From NCBI GenBank assembly GCA_016205145.1, contig JACQJH010000001.1, forward strand, positions 390,001 to 422,000: 32,000 nucleotides of DNA, given 5' to 3'. Below the pieces are notes generated by a model. That model did no database searches. It saw nothing but the letters and a program-made list of their open reading frames with translations, and was not told the origin of the DNA. Positions 1-31,062 of this stretch are shown in pieces (the stretch's first letter is position 1; the number at the start of each line of letters is the position of its first letter). The position numbers were made by a program, and so were the translations under genes. The stretch is from Candidatus Iainarchaeum sp. GTDB lineage: Archaea > Iainarchaeota > Iainarchaeia > Iainarchaeales > JACQJH01.

Positions 1-169
1 GCAATTGGGAGTTCAAGTTTTTTAAATATTTTGTTTTTTGTGTCCTCGCTACAAAATTCGAGCAAATTTATGAGTGATTTGGTGACATTATTTTCAATTT
101 GATAATCTATTTTGTTCTTATTAGATGACTGGCTGCGATAGTAAAAGAAGATGTTTTGGTGCGGATCTT

Positions 170-820
170 TCATTTTTTTATCATCATTGAATTTTCATTA
201 TTTTTCATGCGTATTTTTTTTGTATTTGGATATTTGCCGTTGTGGTCAAGAATATATTCGAATTCCTTGAACCACTGTGTTTCTTGTTGATTTCTCCAGA
301 GTTCTAGTTCCTTGTTTCTAATGTTGATTTTAGTGCCATTTACAAATTCTCTTAGCGCATGGCAGTATGCGATGTACTGCGTTTCATCATTAGTATTAGT
401 CAGCGTGTCTTGAAAGTAGGCAACTATTCTGAAGTCAAAAACAGCGTATTTGTCTGGCAATTTGAATGCAAGTATTGCAGATAGCATTGGCAGATTAATG
501 CCTTTGGCCCCTTCTCGTTTAAGTTCCAGAAGTGCCGCTTTTATTTTTTTACGTTCAATATCTGCGCTTAAATTAGATTCTTTTAGGTCGGCCAGTAATT
601 TATTCAATATGGTAGTGTGTTTATCTTTATCAAAATGACGGCGAATTCGTGGGGATTTCCAGTTTGCTATTGCCTTAAGCTGTATATGGGTAAGTTCGCT
701 ATTGACAATTTTTTTGGAGGCTTCTAACTGAGAGTCCCTCTTTTGAACGGGCTCTTTTAGACACACTAAAATTTTTTTGGTGATTTCTTGCAACTCGGCG
801 GGTTCGTCCATTTTGTTCAC
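170..820 (-). CDS. hypothetical protein, last gene of the CARF-nuclease operon; possible helix-hairpin-helix-like segment
   Basis: 216-aa ORF that starts 7 nt after the stop of the upstream gene on the same strand. It is the most AT-rich part of the window. The segment GINLPMLSAILAFKLPDKYAVFDFR resembles the KGIGQQTLSQFLVAKDPSKFPLI segment of the neighbouring protein. No catalytic motif recognised. Confidence 0.55.
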   Translation of the reverse strand: MNKMDEPAELQEITKKILVCLKEPVQKRDSQLEASKKIVNSELTHIQLKAIANWKSPRIRRHFDKDKHTTILNKLLADLKESNLSADIERKKIKAALLELKREGAKGINLPMLSAILAFKLPDKYAVFDFRIVAYFQDTLTNTNDETQYIAYCHALREFVNGTKINIRNKELELWRNQQETQWFKEFEYILDHNGKYPNTKKIRMKNNENSMMIKK

Positions 821-827
821 ATTCTTG

Positions 828-1892
828 CTATTTTTCCTGCGTTGTTTGGTTTGTGTGTTTGTCGTTTATTTCAAATTTGACTTTGTAGTATTTTAGGCTT
901 ATTTGGTTTTCCACCGGCATTATAGCATAGTCGAGCCTGTTGTCCGGCTCGTTTGTGATTATTATTGCCCTCGCGTTTTCTGATTTGTTCTTTTTTATCC
1001 AGCCCAGGTATCTGAGGGTTTGCCCGACGACTTCGTCGCTTGACCGGCCTTTTTTGAGTTCTATTATGACTTGTTTGCCTTTTTGGTCTTTGCATAGCAG
1101 GTCTATTTTTCCGACTTCTTTTGTGTTGAATTCTTTTTCCGTTAATTGCAGTCCTTTTTCTATCAAATGCGGGTTTTTTGCGAGGTATTCTTTCAGGTCT
1201 TTTTCCAATGAGATTGACGAGTAGTTTTCGAGGATTTCTTCCGGCATTTCAGGGTTTGCGGATTTTTTGCCAAACCATATGAGGTTGTTTACCGACGTGT
1301 ATTTTTCGGTTCCGAGCAGGTTTTTGATTTCTTCGAAAATTATGAAGTTTGTCAGGTAGTCTATTGTTCTGTCCAAGTACTTTGTCGGGTCATCAATGTT
1401 AAAGTGGCGCATTGCCAGTTCATAGGCTTTTTCTTCCTGTTGGGGGCCCAGGTTGAGGGCTTCGGTTGTTTGCCAGGTTATCAGGGGAAATTTTGACGGG
1501 TCTTTGGCGACCAAAAATTGGGAGAGCGTTTGCTGGCCAATTCCTTTGAGCTTAAAGAATTCGTTGACCCTGTTGACAAAGTCGGTTTCGTTTCCAAACA
1601 AAAGCGCGCGCAGTTTTTCGTTGAATTGTTCCAAGCCATTTTCCCGGTATAAAAGGTTTGAAAGCGCCCTGTTGTTGGAAAAATTTCTCATTAAATGAAA
1701 AATCGTGTCAAAATCTTCCGAAGCCAAGTTGTTTCCGGAATCAAAGTTTTTGTCATTGAATATTTTGCTTATTTCCTGTTCTGCCTTGTCTTCCTCGGCT
1801 TTCCACAGCATTGCCTTTTCGGTTTGAAGGCTTTCATTCCATGCCCGCAATTTGTCTATTTGCTCTTCGTAAAAAATTTCACTCACAACCAA
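828..1892 (-). CDS. NucS/DUF91-type PD-(D/E)xK nuclease domain protein with an unknown N-terminal domain of about 220 aa
   Basis: The C-terminal ~115 aa (about nt 873-1220) read SLEKDLKEYLAKNPHLIEKGLQL..EVGKIDLLCKDQKGKQVIIELKKGRSSDEVVGQTLRYLGWI..ARAIIITNE. This matches the hallmark G-x-iDLl...D..g..vviElK...QlxRY pattern of NucS C-terminal / DUF91 restriction-endonuclease-fold domains. It starts 12 nt after the stop of the CARF-wHTH gene. Confidence 0.7.
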   Translation of the reverse strand: MVVSEIFYEEQIDKLRAWNESLQTEKAMLWKAEEDKAEQEISKIFNDKNFDSGNNLASEDFDTIFHLMRNFSNNRALSNLLYRENGLEQFNEKLRALLFGNETDFVNRVNEFFKLKGIGQQTLSQFLVAKDPSKFPLITWQTTEALNLGPQQEEKAYELAMRHFNIDDPTKYLDRTIDYLTNFIIFEEIKNLLGTEKYTSVNNLIWFGKKSANPEMPEEILENYSSISLEKDLKEYLAKNPHLIEKGLQLTEKEFNTKEVGKIDLLCKDQKGKQVIIELKKGRSSDEVVGQTLRYLGWIKKNKSENARAIIITNEPDNRLDYAIMPVENQISLKYYKVKFEINDKHTNQTTQEK

Positions 1893-1904
1893 TCACCTGA
1901 AAGT

Positions 1905-2519
1905 TCACATTCTCGCAATCTTTCCCGCGTCCGTCAGCTTGAATCCTTTTCCGTCTTCTGTTTCTTCGATGAAGCCTCGTTGTTTCAGTTCTTTTAGGTT
2001 GCGGTAGACCATTGCCTTGCTTTGTTCGGTTTCTTTGGCGAGGTCTGCGGGGATGTCGTGTTTTTCGGCTTCTTCGAGGATTTCCTGTTGGCCTGTGGAG
2101 AGGTCGAAGTTGAGTGTGGGCAGGGTTATTATGTCTTTGAATTCGTTTGGCTTGGTTTGGTCTGCCACGTAGACGATTTTTTTTACGCGTGTGCTTCTTG
2201 CGTAGGCGCCGAATAGTGCGCCCAAAGCCTGTGTTTTGCGGCCGTGGGTCACATTCACAAAGATTTCGTCGGTGTTTGCGAGTGCGTCGATGATGTTTGC
2301 GGTGTCCTGTGCTACCGCGACGATGTCGAATAGTTCAACCCTTTTTTCCTTGATTTCGATGACTTTTTCGAATGTTTTTTTGAGGTCGTCGACGGCTTTT
2401 TGCTGTGTTTCATCGGGCTTTTTGTCGATTAGAAGGAACAGGCGGTCGATGGAGAATTTGGTTAAAAGGAGGACGATTGAGTCGGAGGAATAGGCCGTTG
2501 TTATGAGAACCCTTGCCAT
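1905..2519 (-). CDS. Csa3-like regulator: N-terminal CARF-type Rossmann-like domain plus C-terminal winged HTH
   Basis: The layout is MARVLITTAYSSDS..RLFLLIDKK (strand-loop-helix start), then IFVNVTHGRKTQALGALFGAYA (DxTHG-like motif followed by a helix), then a C-terminal wHTH (LSTGQQEILEEA..MVYRNLKELKQRGFIEETEDGKGFKLTDAGK). The ORF is open to 2582. I chose ATG 2519 because a T/A box (gaatttaaaagg, about 2538-2549) lies 20-30 nt upstream of it. Confidence 0.6.
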   Translation of the reverse strand: MARVLITTAYSSDSIVLLLTKFSIDRLFLLIDKKPDETQQKAVDDLKKTFEKVIEIKEKRVELFDIVAVAQDTANIIDALANTDEIFVNVTHGRKTQALGALFGAYARSTRVKKIVYVADQTKPNEFKDIITLPTLNFDLSTGQQEILEEAEKHDIPADLAKETEQSKAMVYRNLKELKQRGFIEETEDGKGFKLTDAGKIARM

Positions 2520-2586
2520 ATCAGGGTTAAAATCGGAAGAATTTAAAAGGTTGCCAGAACAATCCACTGCAATACCCGCCAATACA

Positions 2587-2610
2587 ATAGTATACTTTAT
2601 AGTATACTTT
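2587..2610. promoter_or_regulatory. tandem 12-bp direct repeat ATAGTATACTTT x2, each copy containing the 8-bp palindrome AGTATACT, in the divergent promoter; candidate operator
   Basis: Read directly: caATAGTATACTTTATAGTATACTTTtataagg. The palindromes are at 2589-2596 and 2601-2608. The repeat abuts a TATA-like ttTATAAgg box about 45 nt upstream of the AAA+ start codon. Confidence 0.4.
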
Positions 2611-2659
2611 TATAAGGTGTTTGCGACACGTTTTTTGTTTGTTTTTGTGGTGTTGCGTT

Positions 2660-3823
2660 ATGGTGTCGCAGTCGATGAAACCGCCTGAAGACCTTTTTGG
2701 CGGCGAGGAGATTTCGTGTGACTTGTGCGGGCGGATTATTCCGCCGAATGAGCGTTATTTTGCTTTTACTCTTGGCTTGGAGTATTATTCTTTGAACGGG
2801 GACGGGGCGGAAGTGGAGCCCGTTGACGTGTTTGCCGACAAGACTTTTTGTTTGAATTGTTCCAAGCGGAACGGCACCAATCGGAAATTTAACGCGCTTA
2901 AAAAAAATGCCGGTCCCGAGGTTTCGGTTAACGGGCCCAGTGACCCGCGTTTTGAAAGGCTTGGGGTTGACGGTGATGGCCTTGGCAATATTGGCGTTGA
3001 AGTTGTGCCGTCCAAGGGTTTGGATGACGTTGTTTTGACTCCGAACACGAGGAAAGGCGTTGAACTGGCTTTGGCGCATGTGAGGAATGCCGGAAAGCTC
3101 ATGGCGGATTGGGGTTTGGGTGAAAAATTTTCTTATGGCAATGCCTTGGCTTTGAGTTTTGTGGGATTGCCTGGAACGGGCAAAACTTTGTGCGCGGAGG
3201 CCTTGGCGAAAGAGGCCGGCAAGAAATTGCTGGTTGCCAATGCTTCGCAATTGTTGAATTGTTTTGTCGGCGGCACCGAGAAAAGGATTTCGGCGTTGTT
3301 TGAGCGGGCTTCCAAGTCGGATTGTGTCCTGTTTTTTGATGAGGCCGATTCTTTGGCTTCTACGCGTGTCAGCGTTCAACTGGGCAATGACAGGTATGCG
3401 AACAGTGAAACCAATGTTTTGTTGCAGGAGCTTGAAAAGTTCAGGGGCATAGTCGTTTTTTCGTCTAACATGGCGGGAAATTTTGACCCGGCCTTTGAGA
3501 GAAGGATTGGCTTGCATGTCTTGTTTGAGTTTCCGGGTAAAAGGGAGCGCGTGGAATTGTTCAAAAAACTGGTTCCAAAAAAAATGCCGTTGGCTAAAGG
3601 CGTTTGCTTTGAGGAACTGGCAAAGGAAAAGTTTTCGGGCGGCGACATCAAAAATGTTATAATCAATGCGGCGAGGCTGTGTGTGAGCAACTCAAAGTCC
3701 AAGGTTTCACAGGCCCATTTCGTGGAAGCCGTTGAAATCGTGAAAAATAACAGGAAAAACTCGGGTTTTTTGTTGGGCGCGGAACCTGAAGCAAAATTCA
3801 GGCGGCATTGTTTTGTGAGCTGA
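2660..3823 (+). CDS. AAA+ ATPase (classic clade, SpoVK/COG0464-like) with an N-terminal CxxC...CxxC zinc ribbon
   Basis: Walker A GLPGTGKT (nt 3164-3187), Walker B VLFFDEAD, sensor-1 VVFSSN and Arg finger FERR are present. The N-terminal part carries CDLC...CLNC (nt 2717-2860). The track ORF begins at 2621. ATG 2660 (MVSQSMKPPE) is preferred because it avoids a Cys/Leu/Phe-rich leader. Confidence 0.85.
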   Translation: MVSQSMKPPEDLFGGEEISCDLCGRIIPPNERYFAFTLGLEYYSLNGDGAEVEPVDVFADKTFCLNCSKRNGTNRKFNALKKNAGPEVSVNGPSDPRFERLGVDGDGLGNIGVEVVPSKGLDDVVLTPNTRKGVELALAHVRNAGKLMADWGLGEKFSYGNALALSFVGLPGTGKTLCAEALAKEAGKKLLVANASQLLNCFVGGTEKRISALFERASKSDCVLFFDEADSLASTRVSVQLGNDRYANSETNVLLQELEKFRGIVVFSSNMAGNFDPAFERRIGLHVLFEFPGKRERVELFKKLVPKKMPLAKGVCFEELAKEKFSGGDIKNVIINAARLCVSNSKSKVSQAHFVEAVEIVKNNRKNSGFLLGAEPEAKFRRHCFVS

Positions 3824-3833
3824 GGCGGTTTTT

Positions 3834-4109
3834 GTGGGCAAACGCTTGTTGGATTGCGTGAAAAAAGGCGAAGTCATTGAAATCAACAGCAAGCCTTACG
3901 GGTTCGGGCTTTACGGGTTCGTCAAGGATGAGCTGATAATGCTTGCCGATAAGGGTTTGGCAACCGAGCAGGAAGTCATGTCTGTGCGGATTGGCTTCGT
4001 TTGCGGGAATTGCAAAAGGCACGTCATTCGGAACGTGGCTGACATTCATTTGTTTTTGAGCCAGGCGTGCGGCGAAAAATGTTCCAAGGCGCTTGACAGA
4101 ATAAGGTAA
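3834..4109 (+). CDS. small hypothetical protein with a putative zinc-binding CxxC...CxxxC motif
   Basis: 91-aa ORF with a GTG start 8 nt after a GAGG Shine-Dalgarno-like element that overlaps the AAA+ stop codon. It contains CGNC...CGEKC. Its stop overlaps the next start as TAATG at 4107-4111. Confidence 0.45.
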   Translation: MGKRLLDCVKKGEVIEINSKPYGFGLYGFVKDELIMLADKGLATEQEVMSVRIGFVCGNCKRHVIRNVADIHLFLSQACGEKCSKALDRIR

Positions 4110-4498
4110 TGAGCACAATTGCGGCTAATGTTGCGGCAATCGCAGGGCGTGGTGGCAAAATGAAAAGAAAATTGAAGTCGCCTGAGGATGTGAGGGCTGA
4201 GTTGCAGCTGCTCAAATACCTGCTTGACGCGCTTAACCAGATAGGGGAATTGGAGGGCAGTTTGAGGCATTATAAGAATCACATTGACTTAGACGGCTAT
4301 CTTGCGGGGAAAAGCGAGGCGTCTGAACTGCGGTTTTTGCGGTTCGAGGATAACAAGGACACTCTTGAGCGGTTGTATGAGGAGGTTGAACTTGAATTGC
4401 GGGGCAGGCTGAGCGATTTTGTTGAAGCGCGCCTTGGCGAGTTGGCTGCACAGGAAAAGAAGTGGAAAAAAGTTCGTCGAACGAAAAAATCGGGGTGA
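4109..4498 (+). CDS. hypothetical charged, probably coiled-coil protein
   Basis: 129-aa ORF with an ATG start translationally coupled to the upstream ORF (TAATG). It is rich in E, L, K and R with heptad-like stretches. No recognised motif. Confidence 0.5.
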   Translation: MSTIAANVAAIAGRGGKMKRKLKSPEDVRAELQLLKYLLDALNQIGELEGSLRHYKNHIDLDGYLAGKSEASELRFLRFEDNKDTLERLYEEVELELRGRLSDFVEARLGELAAQEKKWKKVRRTKKSG

Positions 4499-4512
4499 AA
4501 TGCGTGCAACCA

Positions 4513-4662
4513 ATGTTTTCGTTTAAAGGCTCGAAAAGCCAGCGGAAGGCGTTTTGTCTGCTGGCCCAGGAATATGGTTTGTCCGGCAAAAAACTTGCCG
4601 AGTTCAGCGAACTGGATAAAATCGTTTTTCAGAATGTCAAGGTTTTTGCGAAAAGCATTTGA
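4513..4662 (+). CDS. possible small ORF (49 aa from ATG 4513, or 66 aa from ATG 4462)
   Basis: It fills the gap between neighbouring ORFs in the same operon. It is short, has no motif and its start is uncertain. Confidence 0.25.
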   Translation: MFSFKGSKSQRKAFCLLAQEYGLSGKKLAEFSELDKIVFQNVKVFAKSI

Positions 4663-4686
4663 GGTGATTTTACGGAAAAGGTCAAA

Positions 4687-5124
4687 GTGGCGTCAAAAAA
4701 GGAACTGAAAAAACTGAACGGGCGGCTTTTGAAGAGGGCGAAAAAGGCTGTAAACCAAAAAATGGTTTCCAAGTGGAGAAGTGAACTCAGGCCTGTTGCC
4801 AGGGGAATCGGAATGCATGTCATTGACCAATTTTATCTTGAAAACCTTGTTGACGAGTCTTTCGCCGCAGGGTTTCTCGAGGCTTTTCACGGAAACAAGA
4901 AATCGGCGGAAAAAGAGCTGCGGAAAAAGAGGATTATGCCAACCGCGGTTGAAACCGCAAAATACGGCATAGACGAAGACTATTGTGTGGAATTCGCCAA
5001 AAAGTTCAAAGGGAAAAGAAAGGATTTCATCAACGCTCTCAAAAAAGAGGGAAAACAGTCACTGGCAATCGCAATAGGACATTTTGAAAAGTACGGCGAA
5101 GCGCCGGACATGGAGTATGATTAA
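4687..5124 (+). CDS. hypothetical protein
   Basis: 145-aa ORF with a GTG start and a lysine-rich N-terminus followed by a globular-looking region. Same strand and tight spacing as the other operon genes. No recognised motif. Confidence 0.45.
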   Translation: MASKKELKKLNGRLLKRAKKAVNQKMVSKWRSELRPVARGIGMHVIDQFYLENLVDESFAAGFLEAFHGNKKSAEKELRKKRIMPTAVETAKYGIDEDYCVEFAKKFKGKRKDFINALKKEGKQSLAIAIGHFEKYGEAPDMEYD

Positions 5125-5135
5125 GAAACTCAATT

Positions 5136-5666
5136 GTGGGTGAAAGATTGGTGGAATTGTCGGAATTGGCAGTTGAACCGCCGAAGGACTGGACAGCCGA
5201 GTTTTTGACGCCTAAAAACAGCCTGGTTGCGGGCGCGGTTGGCTGGATGTGCAAAAATTGTGCAAAACCTTGGTGCGTGAAGTGCGGCGCATCCGTTCTT
5301 TGTCTTATCTGTCAGGGCGGGGATTACGTTCATTTGTGCGCGGATTGCGCGAAAAGCAGGCTTCACAAGTGCGTTCGTTGTAACGGCAAAGCCGAACCGT
5401 TCAAAATGTCCATACGGCCTTTTATGTGCGTCAATGCCGTGCTTTGCTCGAAGTGCAGGAAGGCTTTCAAAAACAAGTGCTATTCGTGCGGAACTAGGCT
5501 GCCAAGCAAATGCGGTTTTGTCATCCACGATTTTTTGAAAAAGGGCACAAAAATTTATCTGATGAAAGGCAAGTCCGGCAGAATCAAAAAACTGGCACAA
5601 AACGCGCTGCAGGTTTACAGTTGGAGAAGAACAATCTTCCCGCAGTTTCCAAAAAGTTCACATTAA
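5136..5666 (+). CDS. cysteine-rich multi-zinc-finger protein with seven CxxC pairs
   Basis: There are 16 Cys in total. Between nt 5250 and 5489 they form CKNC, CVKC, CLIC, CADC, CVRC, CSKC and CYSC. The C-terminus is basic. The start is GTG 5136, or alternatively ATG 5247 (MCKNC). Confidence 0.55.
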   Translation: MGERLVELSELAVEPPKDWTAEFLTPKNSLVAGAVGWMCKNCAKPWCVKCGASVLCLICQGGDYVHLCADCAKSRLHKCVRCNGKAEPFKMSIRPFMCVNAVLCSKCRKAFKNKCYSCGTRLPSKCGFVIHDFLKKGTKIYLMKGKSGRIKKLAQNALQVYSWRRTIFPQFPKSSH

Positions 5667-16049: not shown

Positions 16050-16682
16050 ATGTCACAGGTTCTTGTCACGGCTTTCGGCGAGGACATGGAAACAGTGTTC
16101 CCGATAATAAAGTCGTTCCAGCTTGAAAAAATCATTCTCCTGGCGACAAAGGATTCGCTTGAAAATGCGAACGCGTTTCTCAAGGAATTCGACAAGTTCG
16201 GCATCTCAGGCAAAACTTACGGGCTGAAGGACTGCTCGATTGAGGAAGTTTTCAGGGCAATCAAGTGGGTTGTGGGTTCCGAAAAGGGAAATGAAGTGAT
16301 AATCAGCGTCGCCTCCGGCAACAAGATTGTCGCCTGCCTCATGGTTTCCGCCGCCTTTGTGAACGGCCTCAAAGCGGTCGGGGTGCAGGACGGAAAAGTG
16401 GTTTTGCTGCCGATAATGAAATTCTCCTATTACAAGCTGCTTTCAGGGCAGAAACTGAAAATAATGGAATTCCTTGTCAGCATGCCGCAGTGCTGTTCCT
16501 CGATTGAAGAGCTTTCAAAGCAGATCGGCTTGAGCCTGCCATTGCTTTCATACCATTTGAACGGCACCCCCAAAGCGGAGGGCCTGAAACAGATGGGGCT
16601 TATTTTGACAGAAGAGAAGGGCAGGAAAACAAGGGTCGAACTGACGCCGTTGGGAAGAATGCTTGTCGCGGGCCATTTGTGA
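16050..16682 (+). CDS. second Csa3-like regulator: CARF-type Rossmann-like N-domain plus ArsR-like wHTH
   Basis: MSQVLVTAFGEDMETVFPIIKSFQLEKIILLATKDS and VIISVASGNKIVACLMVSAAFVNG match the Csa3 fold pattern. The C-terminal wHTH reads LSGQKLKIMEFLV..SIEELSKQIGLSLPLLSYHLNG..GLILTEEKGRKTRVELTPLGR. A T/A box (tttttttaaaag) lies about 20-30 nt upstream of the ATG. Confidence 0.6.
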   Translation: MSQVLVTAFGEDMETVFPIIKSFQLEKIILLATKDSLENANAFLKEFDKFGISGKTYGLKDCSIEEVFRAIKWVVGSEKGNEVIISVASGNKIVACLMVSAAFVNGLKAVGVQDGKVVLLPIMKFSYYKLLSGQKLKIMEFLVSMPQCCSSIEELSKQIGLSLPLLSYHLNGTPKAEGLKQMGLILTEEKGRKTRVELTPLGRMLVAGHL

Positions 16683-30104: not shown

Positions 30105-30833
30105 ATGGCAAGAGAACCGCCACGACGGTCCAAGCAGCCTTGGCACAGAAAAGCCAGAAACTGGGTTGCGCTCGGCGTGGGGGCGCTTGGCTTTGGCTGG
30201 TTTGGCACAAAAACCGCCGGCCCGAGACAGCCGGTTGCTCCGCAGGCCCAAACTGGCCAGGTTGCGCCGGGGCAACAATCTGCACGGTCCCGCAGGCCGG
30301 CCCCGCGGCAACAGCCTGAACAGCCCCGCGGGCGTGCACCGCGATTTAGCCAAACGTTTGAGGCACCTTCAACTTCTGCTGAACCGGTCCGCCCGACAAT
30401 ATCTTATCCTGCCGGATCTGCCATGGATAAGGCGCAGAAAAGCGAGTATGCGGCAAGCCTTGAAAAAGCCTTCAAGGGCACCAAGGCAAGCAAGCCGTTC
30501 CGCGAGAATTTGATTGACATCTGCCATTTTGCTTACGGCACGGGAATCATGCCGGAGGATGCGGCCAAAGTCCTGCAATTCTGTGCAAAGCACAGCCTGC
30601 GCCCGCTTGACTTTTTCTGGGCGGCGGAACACGCAACCGCGGGAACGCCCGCGGCAGTCAAGGTCCATTCATTTCTAAGCGGCCCCGAGCAAAAACGCCT
30701 TGCCGACACCATAAAGCGAACTGAAGGCAGCGCAGCCAAAATCGATTCCCTGGTTAAAGGCGCACAGTACGAACGTGACCTGCAACGCTATATAGACGCG
30801 CACGGCGGCAACCTGCCGGCCGACCCGGAATAA
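30105..30833 (+). CDS. hypothetical membrane-anchored protein with a P/Q/R-rich linker and a C-terminal globular domain
   Basis: From ATG 30105 it has a basic N-terminus, one TM segment (WVALGVGALGFGWFG), about 70 aa of low-complexity P/Q/R/A sequence and about 150 aa of unknown domain. The ORF is open from 30045 and the start is uncertain (30066 or 30105). Confidence 0.5.
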   Translation: MAREPPRRSKQPWHRKARNWVALGVGALGFGWFGTKTAGPRQPVAPQAQTGQVAPGQQSARSRRPAPRQQPEQPRGRAPRFSQTFEAPSTSAEPVRPTISYPAGSAMDKAQKSEYAASLEKAFKGTKASKPFRENLIDICHFAYGTGIMPEDAAKVLQFCAKHSLRPLDFFWAAEHATAGTPAAVKVHSFLSGPEQKRLADTIKRTEGSAAKIDSLVKGAQYERDLQRYIDAHGGNLPADPE

Positions 30834-30944: not shown

Positions 30945-31062
30945 GATTAGCAGCGTTCAGGCGGCTCCAAGCAGAAGCCCAGCGCCAACCTTTTCCCTGC
31001 AGGTCTTAACTTCCGGGTTCGAAACGAGTCCGGGTGTTTCCCCTGCGGTATGGCCGCTAATC
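30945..31062 (-). rRNA. rrf: 5S ribosomal RNA, stand-alone
   Basis: The reverse complement reads GATTAGCGGCCATACCGCAGGGGAAACACCCGGACTCGTTTCGAACCCGGAAGTTAAGACCTGCAGGG...GAACGCTGCTAATC. Helix I has 10 bp between the two ends. The conserved archaeal 5S core CCGAACCCGGAAGTTAAG is present. A T/A box (GTTTTTTAAAC on the minus strand, 31085-31095) is centred about 27 nt upstream. Confidence 0.88.

Follow-up and report, generated by a model that had tools for sequence, protein, structure and literature searches.

What a transcription factor of the Csa3 family might control in an archaeal locus that carries no CRISPR (short palindromic repeats, clustered and regularly interspaced) is the question raised by a stretch of 32 kb from Candidatus Iainarchaeum sp. 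(contig JACQJH010000001.1, positions 390,001 to 422,000; the whole stretch is called the window here). In its left 2.6 kb, open reading frames (ORFs) are packed tightly on the minus strand, namely csa3, which codes for a CARF domain joined to a winged helix-turn-helix (wHTH), a nuclease gene, and a gene for a small stand-alone protein referred to as gene 3 (Table 1). The source lineage, Diapherotrites/Iainarchaeota, belongs to the kingdom Nanobdellati, i.e. to the DPANN archaea, which mostly lack CRISPR-Cas, and the products of csa3 and gene 3 each match, with 100% identity, an NCBI protein from a metagenome-assembled genome labeled 'Candidatus Diapherotrites archaeon'. As the initial annotation of this DNA had stated, CRISPR-Cas is not found nearby: no CRISPR-like array was detected in the 32-kb window, and none of its scanned ORFs matched a cas or cyclase family. 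The account that we favor, with moderate confidence, is that csa3 encodes a resident, autoregulated Csa3-type controller that heads an exchangeable slot for defense cargo and most likely controls the transcription of that cargo.

The assignment of the first gene to the Csa3 layout, with a CARF-like N-domain ahead of a wHTH, held in profile searches. The protein passes the cut-off of TIGR01884 (83.8 bits; cut-off 60.2) and matches two PADLOC models, CARF3 (PDLC01849; E = 3e-60), which by the PADLOC model names corresponds to the Csa3 clade, and Csa3 itself (PDLC01044; 5e-14). The best Pfam family for the N-domain is HFX_2341_N (also DUF6293; 53 bits; cut-off 30), with Csa3_N below its cut-off (23.8 bits; cut-off 27), and residues 147-201 give MarR-type wHTH matches (HVO_A0261_N, MarR_2, PadR and TrmB). 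The name given by NCBI to the identical protein is 'CRISPR locus-related DNA-binding protein'. We collected ~100 homologs that are 40-60% identical, the named ones coming from Diapherotrites, Aenigmatarchaeota, Nanoarchaeota and Nanobdellota. Their alignment keeps the CARF signature VN(I/V)TxG(R/K)KTQ (N89/T91/K95/T96) and the region of the wHTH recognition helix, and the NVTHG motif picked out in the initial annotation is this family signature ('VNITxGRKTQ'). When the family profile was compared with structures, its CARF part best matched the CARF-nuclease-type entry 8bao (1.4e-5) and its wHTH part matched AdcR/MarR-type entries.

Csa3, Csa3a and Csa3b of Sulfolobales resemble the window protein in the two-domain layout, in passing the TIGR01884 threshold and in the CARF signature. 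They are, however, regulators of type I-A CRISPR-Cas that bind cyclic tetra-adenylate in a dimeric CARF pocket and are encoded within or beside a CRISPR-Cas locus, typically of type I-A, whereas the window holds neither an array nor a cas gene and the genes behind its csa3 are of an innate restriction type. HFX_2341 of Haloferax mediterranei is described as a Csa3a-like repressor with an unknown ligand that is kept even in species without CRISPR-Cas (PMC11434293). This protein has 308 amino acids, is vertically inherited and is described as a global regulator, in contrast to the DPANN Csa3 proteins of ~200 amino acids, which head variable, apparently imported defense genes.

Evidence for the DNA target of the regulator comes from the 140 nucleotides (nt) that separate csa3 from a divergently transcribed AAA+ ATPase gene (between the ATG codons at 2519 and 2660). 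The repeats initially reported at 2587-2610 are real and are tandem 12-mers, two 100% identical copies of ATAGTATACTTT; the candidate operator that they contain, GTATAC-N6-GTATAC, has no second match in the window even when 2 mismatches are allowed (0.06 expected). The AT-rich element that adjoins it (the CTTTTATAAGG region) was read directly from the sequence and would be a bidirectional TATA box. We compared 80 metagenomic loci that encode Csa3 relatives, counting operators over their 70 distinct upstream regions. The core TAC-N6-GTA lies ≤150 nt upstream in 24 of these 70, against 2.9 in shuffled sequence, and the 162 other intergenic segments from these loci (31.6 kb in total) hold a single copy, which amounts to a ~70-fold enrichment upstream of Csa3. 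In remoter relatives the site takes the form TTCTAC-N6-GTAGAA/GTATAC. Taken together, these comparisons are good evidence that members of the Csa3 family autoregulate via a conserved inverted repeat at their core promoter; this regulation would presumably be repressive and may also reach the divergent gene. A comparable layout is known among the Sulfolobales Csa3 regulators from CAPPa, where an inverted-repeat operator, TCCC-N8-GGGA, adjoins the promoter TATA box (PMC8699464), although the operator sequence there differs from that in the window.

A second, distant CARF-wHTH paralog of 210 amino acids is encoded at 16050-16682 (+), inside an N-glycosylation gene cluster. It matches HFX_2341_N (E = 1e-5), aligns with the Csa3 family (hhalign 96.4%, E = 1.3e-9) and lacks a GTATAC-type operator upstream. 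Because of this paralog, the genome has at least two Csa3-like regulators away from a CRISPR locus.

The spacing of the three minus-strand genes by 12 and 7 nt was confirmed in the ORF layout, the second gap being 7 nt with the GTG start of gene 3 and 16 nt with its annotated ATG. A Shine-Dalgarno-like GGTGAT box lies 5 nt ahead of the TTG start of the nuclease gene, and a TATA-like box was not seen in the last 100 nt of csa3. Because only 12 nt separate csa3 from the nuclease gene, a separate nuclease promoter has no room between them. Given this gap, the lack of a TATA-like box in the 3' end of csa3 and the conserved operator upstream, it is very probable that Csa3 governs transcription of the string, whose genes would be co-transcribed.

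The same layout recurs in front of other cargo. Among 59 distinct loci with Csa3 homologs, the next ORF lies on the same strand in 57, and in 44 it is ≤30 nt away or overlaps. The downstream proteins are mutually unrelated (6% mean column identity). Pfam searches on 57 of them returned GmrSD_N (four), DUF4268 (three), SLFN_AlbA_2 (Schlafen; three) and PDDEXK_1 (two), as well as single matches to UvrD-helicase, AAA_5 (McrB-like), N6_N4_Mtase, GIY-YIG, PDDEXK_5, ORF6N, Bro-N and KilA-N; PADLOC returned PDC-S11, HEC-06 and Orf5 (three each) and HEC-05 and SspE (two each). At two loci a whole co-directional island follows Csa3, comprising in one (L186) a DUF8426/HNH protein, VRR_NUC, PDDEXK_1, an SNF2 helicase with HNH repeats and a methylase, and in the other (L187) MazE-PIN, PDDEXK_1, a PLD-helicase and an Eco57I/MmeI-type methylase, with Fic and AAA ATPase genes divergent. 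No CRISPR-like array was found in the flanks (up to 6 kb) of the 80 Csa3-related loci. Taken singly, the parts are familiar: a regulator of the Csa3/HFX_2341 family, and type IV nucleases of the END type. What is new is the recurrent DPANN arrangement in which interchangeable defense genes stand behind a Csa3 clade that has a conserved operator to itself, an arrangement that we did not find described in the literature searched.

Both of these long contigs also have, on the opposite strand upstream of Csa3, a small gene of 117-118 amino acids with a faint or weak match to FtsZ_C (L186:7575-7931 (-); L187:2346-2699 (-)); it could mark a conserved flank of the cargo slot.

Base composition falls along the string, from a GC content of 0.48 in csa3 to 0.41 in the nuclease gene, 0.37 in gene 3 and 0.31 in a co-directional fourth gene, with 0.51 in the rest of the window. 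Because gene 4 has this low GC and runs off the window, the low-GC island continues beyond the window edge. Across the metagenomic loci, the downstream gene averages 6.8 GC points under csa3 (48 of 51 differences negative, p = 6e-9). The low GC thus looks to mark the nuclease as imported cargo behind a resident regulator. Gene 4, whose start overlaps the stop codon of gene 3 by 4 nt, was extended to 157 amino acids with a Logan contig (L170:1132-1602); it has a 'PDAVID...IVIESK' motif and a weak match to PDDEXK_4 (E = 0.017) and is, on these features, possibly a PD-(D/E)xK protein.

All the independent Logan assemblies retrieved for this organism (L086, L087, L088, L169 and L170; SRR12113383-85) break inside csa3 or the nuclease gene, or span only 1.6-1.8 kb around the nuclease gene and gene 3, whereas the glycosylation cluster assembles into Logan contigs of 8-19 kb. 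The breaks at the cargo could reflect presence or absence at the strain level, or just low coverage of AT-rich DNA.

Table 1. Features of the csa3 locus, in window coordinates
Feature	Position	Strand	Description
Gene 1 (csa3)	1905-2519 (ATG, 204 amino acids); alternative TTG start 2582 (225 amino acids)	-	Csa3-family CARF-wHTH transcription factor
Gene 2 (nuclease)	828-1892 (TTG start, 354 amino acids)	-	N-domain plus NucS_C-type PD-(D/E)xK domain
Nuclease N-domain, residues 8-212	1257-1871	-	All-alpha, Ogg-fold helix-hairpin-helix (HhH)-like; lacks both glycosylase catalytic residues
Nuclease C-domain, residues 222-354	828-1229	-	NucS_C-type PD-(D/E)xK; D-E-K triad intact
Gene 3	170-811 (ATG, 213 amino acids) or 170-820 (GTG)	-	Stand-alone Ogg-fold HhH protein
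Gene 4 (partial)	1-173	-	Co-directional, runs off the window; possible PD-(D/E)xK protein
Candidate Csa3 operator, GTATAC-N6-GTATAC	2590-2607		Inside the tandem 12-mers; arms around a TATA-like spacer
AT-rich TATA-like element	2608-2616		Read directly from sequence
AAA+ ATPase gene	2660-3823; alternative start 2621	+	IetA-like, zinc-ribbon-like Cys-rich N-terminus; shares the operator-bearing intergenic region with csa3

The cargo of the window itself centers on the nuclease, for which a NucS-C/DUF91 core had been proposed, correctly as it proved. The C-domain matches PF01939 (NucS_C; residues 230-314, 62 bits, cut-off 24) and PDB entry 2vld (E = 5e-6), and in Foldseek the nuclease model fits EndoMS/NucS (5gke/2vld) with a probability of 1.0 and a root mean square deviation (rmsd) of 2.1-2.5 Å. 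Residues D264, E278, K280, Q291 and Y295, which include the catalytic D-E-K residues, are invariant in 37 nuclease homologs, and with these residues kept the domain is predicted to be catalytically intact. Among PADLOC candidate families, the protein matches PDC-S02 (7e-20) and PDC-S11 (7e-18).

We considered and rejected a genuine NucS mismatch-repair enzyme. NucS/EndoMS shares the C-terminal fold and the D-E-K/Q-Y motif with the window nuclease but has an N-terminal domain of its own, which the window protein lacks, and against two NCBIfam NucS equivalogs the latter scores 69 and 46 bits, through its C-domain only, where the cut-offs are 216 and 252. A PCNA-interacting motif, Qxx(L/I/M)xx(F/Y)(F/Y), was not seen by inspection of the C-terminus (...KFEINDKHTNQTTQEK), and the tail is unconserved in the family. 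Full-length relatives are 25-61% identical and have a patchy distribution (Bathyarchaeia, Nitrosopumilaceae, Thorarchaeota, Dehalococcoidia, Omnitrophota, Acidobacteria and others). The possibility raised in the initial annotation that the trio would turn out to be a conserved housekeeping repair locus of the NucS type is therefore not borne out, since the equivalog thresholds are failed, no PCNA-binding motif was seen and the trio is not conserved.

The N-domain of the nuclease and the gene 3 product, both initially listed as unknown, appear to be related Ogg-fold HhH domains. The N-domain yields a confident all-alpha AlphaFold2 model (predicted local distance difference test 89-91, predicted TM score 0.87), for which the top PDB match in Foldseek is SsOgg (3fhg; probability 0.87-0.93), followed by MjOgg (3knt) and then by MutY and EndoIII. 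Gene 3 is ORFan-like in a word-indexed search, and an exhaustive HMMER search found only 30 remote homologs. Their profile matches archaeal 8-oxoguanine glycosylases (9o00 with E = 4e-6; 3fhf, 3fhg and 3knt at ~2e-4; 3n0u at 7e-3), and some members match Pfam OGG (PF21790), Ogg-HhH and DUF6308. W51, K52, G104, S111, L114 and D126 are invariant in the gene 3 family. When the family profiles of gene 3 and the nuclease were aligned with each other, 122 columns were matched (hhalign 94.6%, E = 7e-8), which argues that gene 3 and the nuclease N-domain are related modules; the HhH-like segment that the two proteins had been said to share is thus indeed shared, but it is not short.

The two modules differ in their catalytic positions. 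In a transitive alignment, the nuclease position that corresponds to the catalytic Asp of Ogg is T, S or N in 37 of 37 homologs and the Lys position is an invariant Gln, whereas gene 3 keeps the Asp-aligned residue (D126, in VFDFR) and has Pro at the Lys position. From these residues, gene 3 could be a monofunctional glycosylase or a second, auxiliary sensor. Its closest relative (P0196; L183:4321-4848) stands in a string with genes for a C-terminal fragment of a type I restriction-modification (R-M) HsdR, HARE-HTH, DUF4325 and PIN proteins, a context for the free Ogg-fold family that is defense-island-like.

This domain composition appears to be that of the END nucleases, defense enzymes that carry an inactivated EndoIII/Ogg domain for sensing hypermodified bases, fused to a nuclease that does the cutting (PMC12191111, a 2025 preprint). 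One of them, END^Mag (MDV2503288.1), is a 'NucS-like PD-DExK' version from a sediment metagenome that restricted modified-guanine phages in E. coli and P. aeruginosa, and HHpred likened its sensor to the same Ogg structures (PMC12191111). The window nuclease would share its domain content with END^Mag: glycosylase residues are lost by the transitive alignment, nuclease residues are intact, and the candidate sensor domain resembles, weakly when taken alone, the archaeal Ogg structures that END^Mag matched (3FHG and the Ogg of Mj and Tm). The window nuclease family is also, like END, encoded by a single gene that in some loci lies beside R-M genes. By this analogy the window protein appears to be a restriction nuclease of the END kind, type IV-like and complete in itself; its N-domain is proposed to be a sensor of modified bases, and its specificity would be for modified DNA. 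The END paper describes neither an operonic CARF regulator nor a second, free-standing Ogg-fold protein, both of which the window nuclease has.

In several partial relatives of the nuclease (P0081, P0085, P0087, P0092 and P0093), Pfam DUF8426 (PF28530) is fused to NucS_C, and in the cargo behind one Csa3 homolog it is fused to HNH (L186:9340-11202). It is possible that DUF8426, too, is a sensor domain exchanged among different types of nuclease. Viral contigs hold nuclease relatives by the C-domain only and one Csa3 relative, in a giant-virus bin, and a viral origin of csa3 and the nuclease was dropped on this account.

Since both folds derive from repair enzymes, we asked whether the string might instead be a DNA-repair operon, in which the Ogg-like and NucS-like proteins would serve base-excision or mismatch repair of the host chromosome under a Csa3-type regulator. 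One nuclease homolog adjoins Mre11-Rad50-NurA-HerA, gene 3 keeps its catalytic-Asp-aligned residue, and Csa3a of Sulfolobus is reported to activate or regulate DNA-repair genes (PMC8844856; PMC11434293). Against this stand the loss of both Ogg catalytic residues from the N-domain throughout the family, the low scores against the NucS equivalogs, the lack of a NucS N-domain and of a visible PIP-like motif (that of PCNA-interacting peptides), the patchy spread over unrelated phyla with low GC and R-M neighbors, and the experimentally shown anti-phage activity of END^Mag, a nuclease of the same architecture (PMC12191111). We regard a repair operon as quite improbable, and a defense role is the best reading of the trio.

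The initial annotation had drawn an analogy to Can1, Can2 and Card1, the CARF sensor and the nuclease being separate polypeptides here. In these effectors CARF and PD-(D/E)xK domains form one polypeptide that cyclic oligoadenylate activates allosterically, whereas in the window each has a gene to itself, with a wHTH at the end of the CARF protein and a separate N-terminal HhH domain in the nuclease. A split effector, in which the CARF protein would sense cyclic oligoadenylate and activate the separate nuclease by direct protein contact, could draw on the conserved CARF motif, on 8bao as the best structural relative of the CARF part, and on weak Foldseek matches of the nuclease model to Card1 and Can2 (ranks 11-40). 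It is extremely unlikely all the same, as the conserved wHTH and operator point to DNA binding as the output of Csa3, the genes that follow Csa3 encode partners of many kinds unrelated to one another, and no cyclase was found among the scanned ORFs of the window. The nuclease, moreover, carries its own dead Ogg-like sensor domain and occurs in all other loci without a CARF partner, so that the analogy does not hold.

The divergent gene on the other side of the operator encodes an AAA+ ATPase (PF00004, 87 bits; PADLOC IetA, 4e-32; phrog_3757, 8e-44) that scores 100.8 bits against NCBIfam IteA, far under the cut-off of 510. It opens an operon (2660-5666, +) in which four small ORFs of 91, 129, 145 and 176 amino acids without family matches follow, the last of them dense in CxxC pairs. 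The IetAS defense system pairs the IetA ATPase with the protease IetS, but no IetS-type protease follows the window ATPase. A related AAA+ ATPase adjoins Csa3 homologs in 15 metagenome loci, divergently in 12, and is also found in L187, and the ATPase operon may be another defense module under the same operator.

Whether the three genes form a dedicated module was addressed in both directions, with nuclease loci (85 in all; 23 with full-length relatives of the nuclease) and with the 80 Csa3 loci, and the answer was negative. This and several other observations weigh against the account given here. No Csa3 or gene 3 homolog is present in any of the 23 full-length nuclease loci, and the window nuclease and gene 3 are absent from all 80 Csa3 loci, where only the AAA ATPase is syntenic. 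Because Csa3 is missing from 23 of 23 other full-length loci, the nuclease does not need the window regulator; its neighbors are in some loci housekeeping genes. The GC contrast is partly due to csa3 itself, because the genes at position -1 are also 2.9 GC points under csa3. On the side of the regulator, the family profile does not match the Sulfolobus Csa3 structures at E ≤ 1, and because of this the window csa3 is to be seen as a distant branch of the Csa3 family. On the side of the nuclease, the Ogg matches of the N-domain are statistically weak taken alone (E = 0.04-0.15, TM ~0.37, rmsd ~12 Å), its sequence profile has no match in the PDB, and the assignment is qualified because its link to Ogg is transitive, via the gene 3 family; likewise, the nuclease is likened to END^Mag by domain content and by the status of its catalytic residues, not by sequence family. 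Further searches of the nuclease loci gave little: tblastn with the window Csa3, gene 3, AAA ATPase and small ORFs against all 85 returned only a match to a 26-amino-acid gene 3 fragment (L051). Among the 80 Csa3 loci there are one NucS_C-type neighbor (L102) and one weakly gene 3-like neighbor (L094), and other neighbors of the nuclease family are heterogeneous, with type I R-M, Mrr, HepT/nucleotidyltransferase and FtsK genes in some loci.

These data would also fit a fortuitous adjacency, in which a low-GC block of nuclease, gene 3 and gene 4 landed behind a resident regulator whose true targets are csa3 and the ATPase operon, read-through into the block being incidental. The trio is not conserved, GC falls stepwise after csa3, the nuclease family is solitary elsewhere among heterogeneous neighbors, the AAA ATPase recurs beside Csa3 (15 loci and L187), and the sole operator sits in the intergenic region between csa3 and the ATPase gene. 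Random insertion, however, would not be expected to place a same-strand follower behind Csa3 in 57 of 59 loci, usually within 30 nt or overlapping. That the followers are repeatedly restriction or defense genes, the 12-nt gap without promoter room and the lack of a TATA-like box in the csa3 3' end also speak against it. We consider such an adjacency somewhat unlikely and retain the controller of an exchangeable slot as our preferred explanation. The initial proposal of a stand-alone regulator that controls a defense nuclease thus survives in part, in the CRISPR-orphan Csa3, the conserved operator and the 12-nt gap, but not as a dedicated sensor-nuclease module.

Under the preferred explanation, low-GC restriction-type genes would have been acquired horizontally behind the resident csa3 of a DPANN archaeon. 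Csa3 dimers would bind GTATAC-N6-GTATAC astride the TATA-like element between csa3 and the divergent ATPase gene and would autoregulate the csa3-nuclease transcript, thereby capping or timing a potentially self-toxic nuclease, with a control logic like that of the controller (C) proteins of R-M systems. Non-canonical or hypermodified bases in DNA would be sought out by the dead Ogg-like HhH domain, and the NucS-type PD-(D/E)xK domain would cut. Because the CARF pocket motif is conserved, a small nucleotide ligand is proposed to modulate Csa3 control, and the switch would then be ligand-gated.

Regulators at the head of defense genes are known from bacteria. RtcR-like CARF-ATPase-HTH regulators head CoCoNuT/type IV and type I R-M superoperons (PMC11090510), and the WYL-wHTH proteins BrxR and CapW are ligand-sensing regulators that head bacterial defense operons (PMC9122601, PMC11662680). 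These regulators and the C proteins are encoded, as in the window, by a sensor-HTH gene at the 5' end of restriction genes that run in the same direction, and palindromic operators lie at the promoter of that gene; the shared logic is that toxic defense genes are restrained until needed. The window csa3 product differs from the RtcR-like proteins in being a CARF3-wHTH protein with no ATPase and no sigma-54, and from C proteins, which have no ligand domain, in its CARF domain; in contrast to the bacterial systems, the host is archaeal (DPANN) and the cargo is exchangeable from genome to genome.

The remainder of the window is archaeal, with genes for a TATA-binding protein (TBP) and the AglB oligosaccharyltransferase and an N-glycosylation gene cluster of ~24 kb. 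A lone 5S rRNA gene (30945-31061, -; 67 bits) adjoins the TBP gene, 16S and 23S genes being absent from the window, and near it lies a tandem repeat of 36 nt (30263-30343; 2.2 copies, 73% matches).

A broader and more speculative view, which we think unlikely although worth stating, is that the DPANN Csa3 clade acts as a master switch gated by an infection signal, into which type IV/END nucleases, GmrSD, Schlafen-like proteins, R-M and toxin-antitoxin modules are plugged by horizontal transfer, and that its CARF ligand is a nucleotide signal from outside the cell's own type III CRISPR. Such a signal could come from an unrecognized cyclase, from RNA-cleavage products or from cyclic oligoadenylates of the symbiont's host cell. 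HFX_2341 raises the same ligand question in species without a Cas10 cyclase (PMC11434293), and the question of what CARF domains sense in such organisms would become sharper if the slot is real. On the same condition, the END class of modification-dependent nucleases would gain an example from archaea that is linked to a regulator, and the free Ogg-fold protein that accompanies it may indicate a two-component END variant. If our explanation is correct, the logic of CARF-wHTH (Csa3) regulation would extend from CRISPR-Cas to innate, restriction-type defense in archaea, as an archaeal counterpart of the WYL/BrxR and RtcR-like regulators of bacterial defense operons, and csa3 would offer a practical anchor in the search for defense genes in DPANN genomes, which have few known systems.

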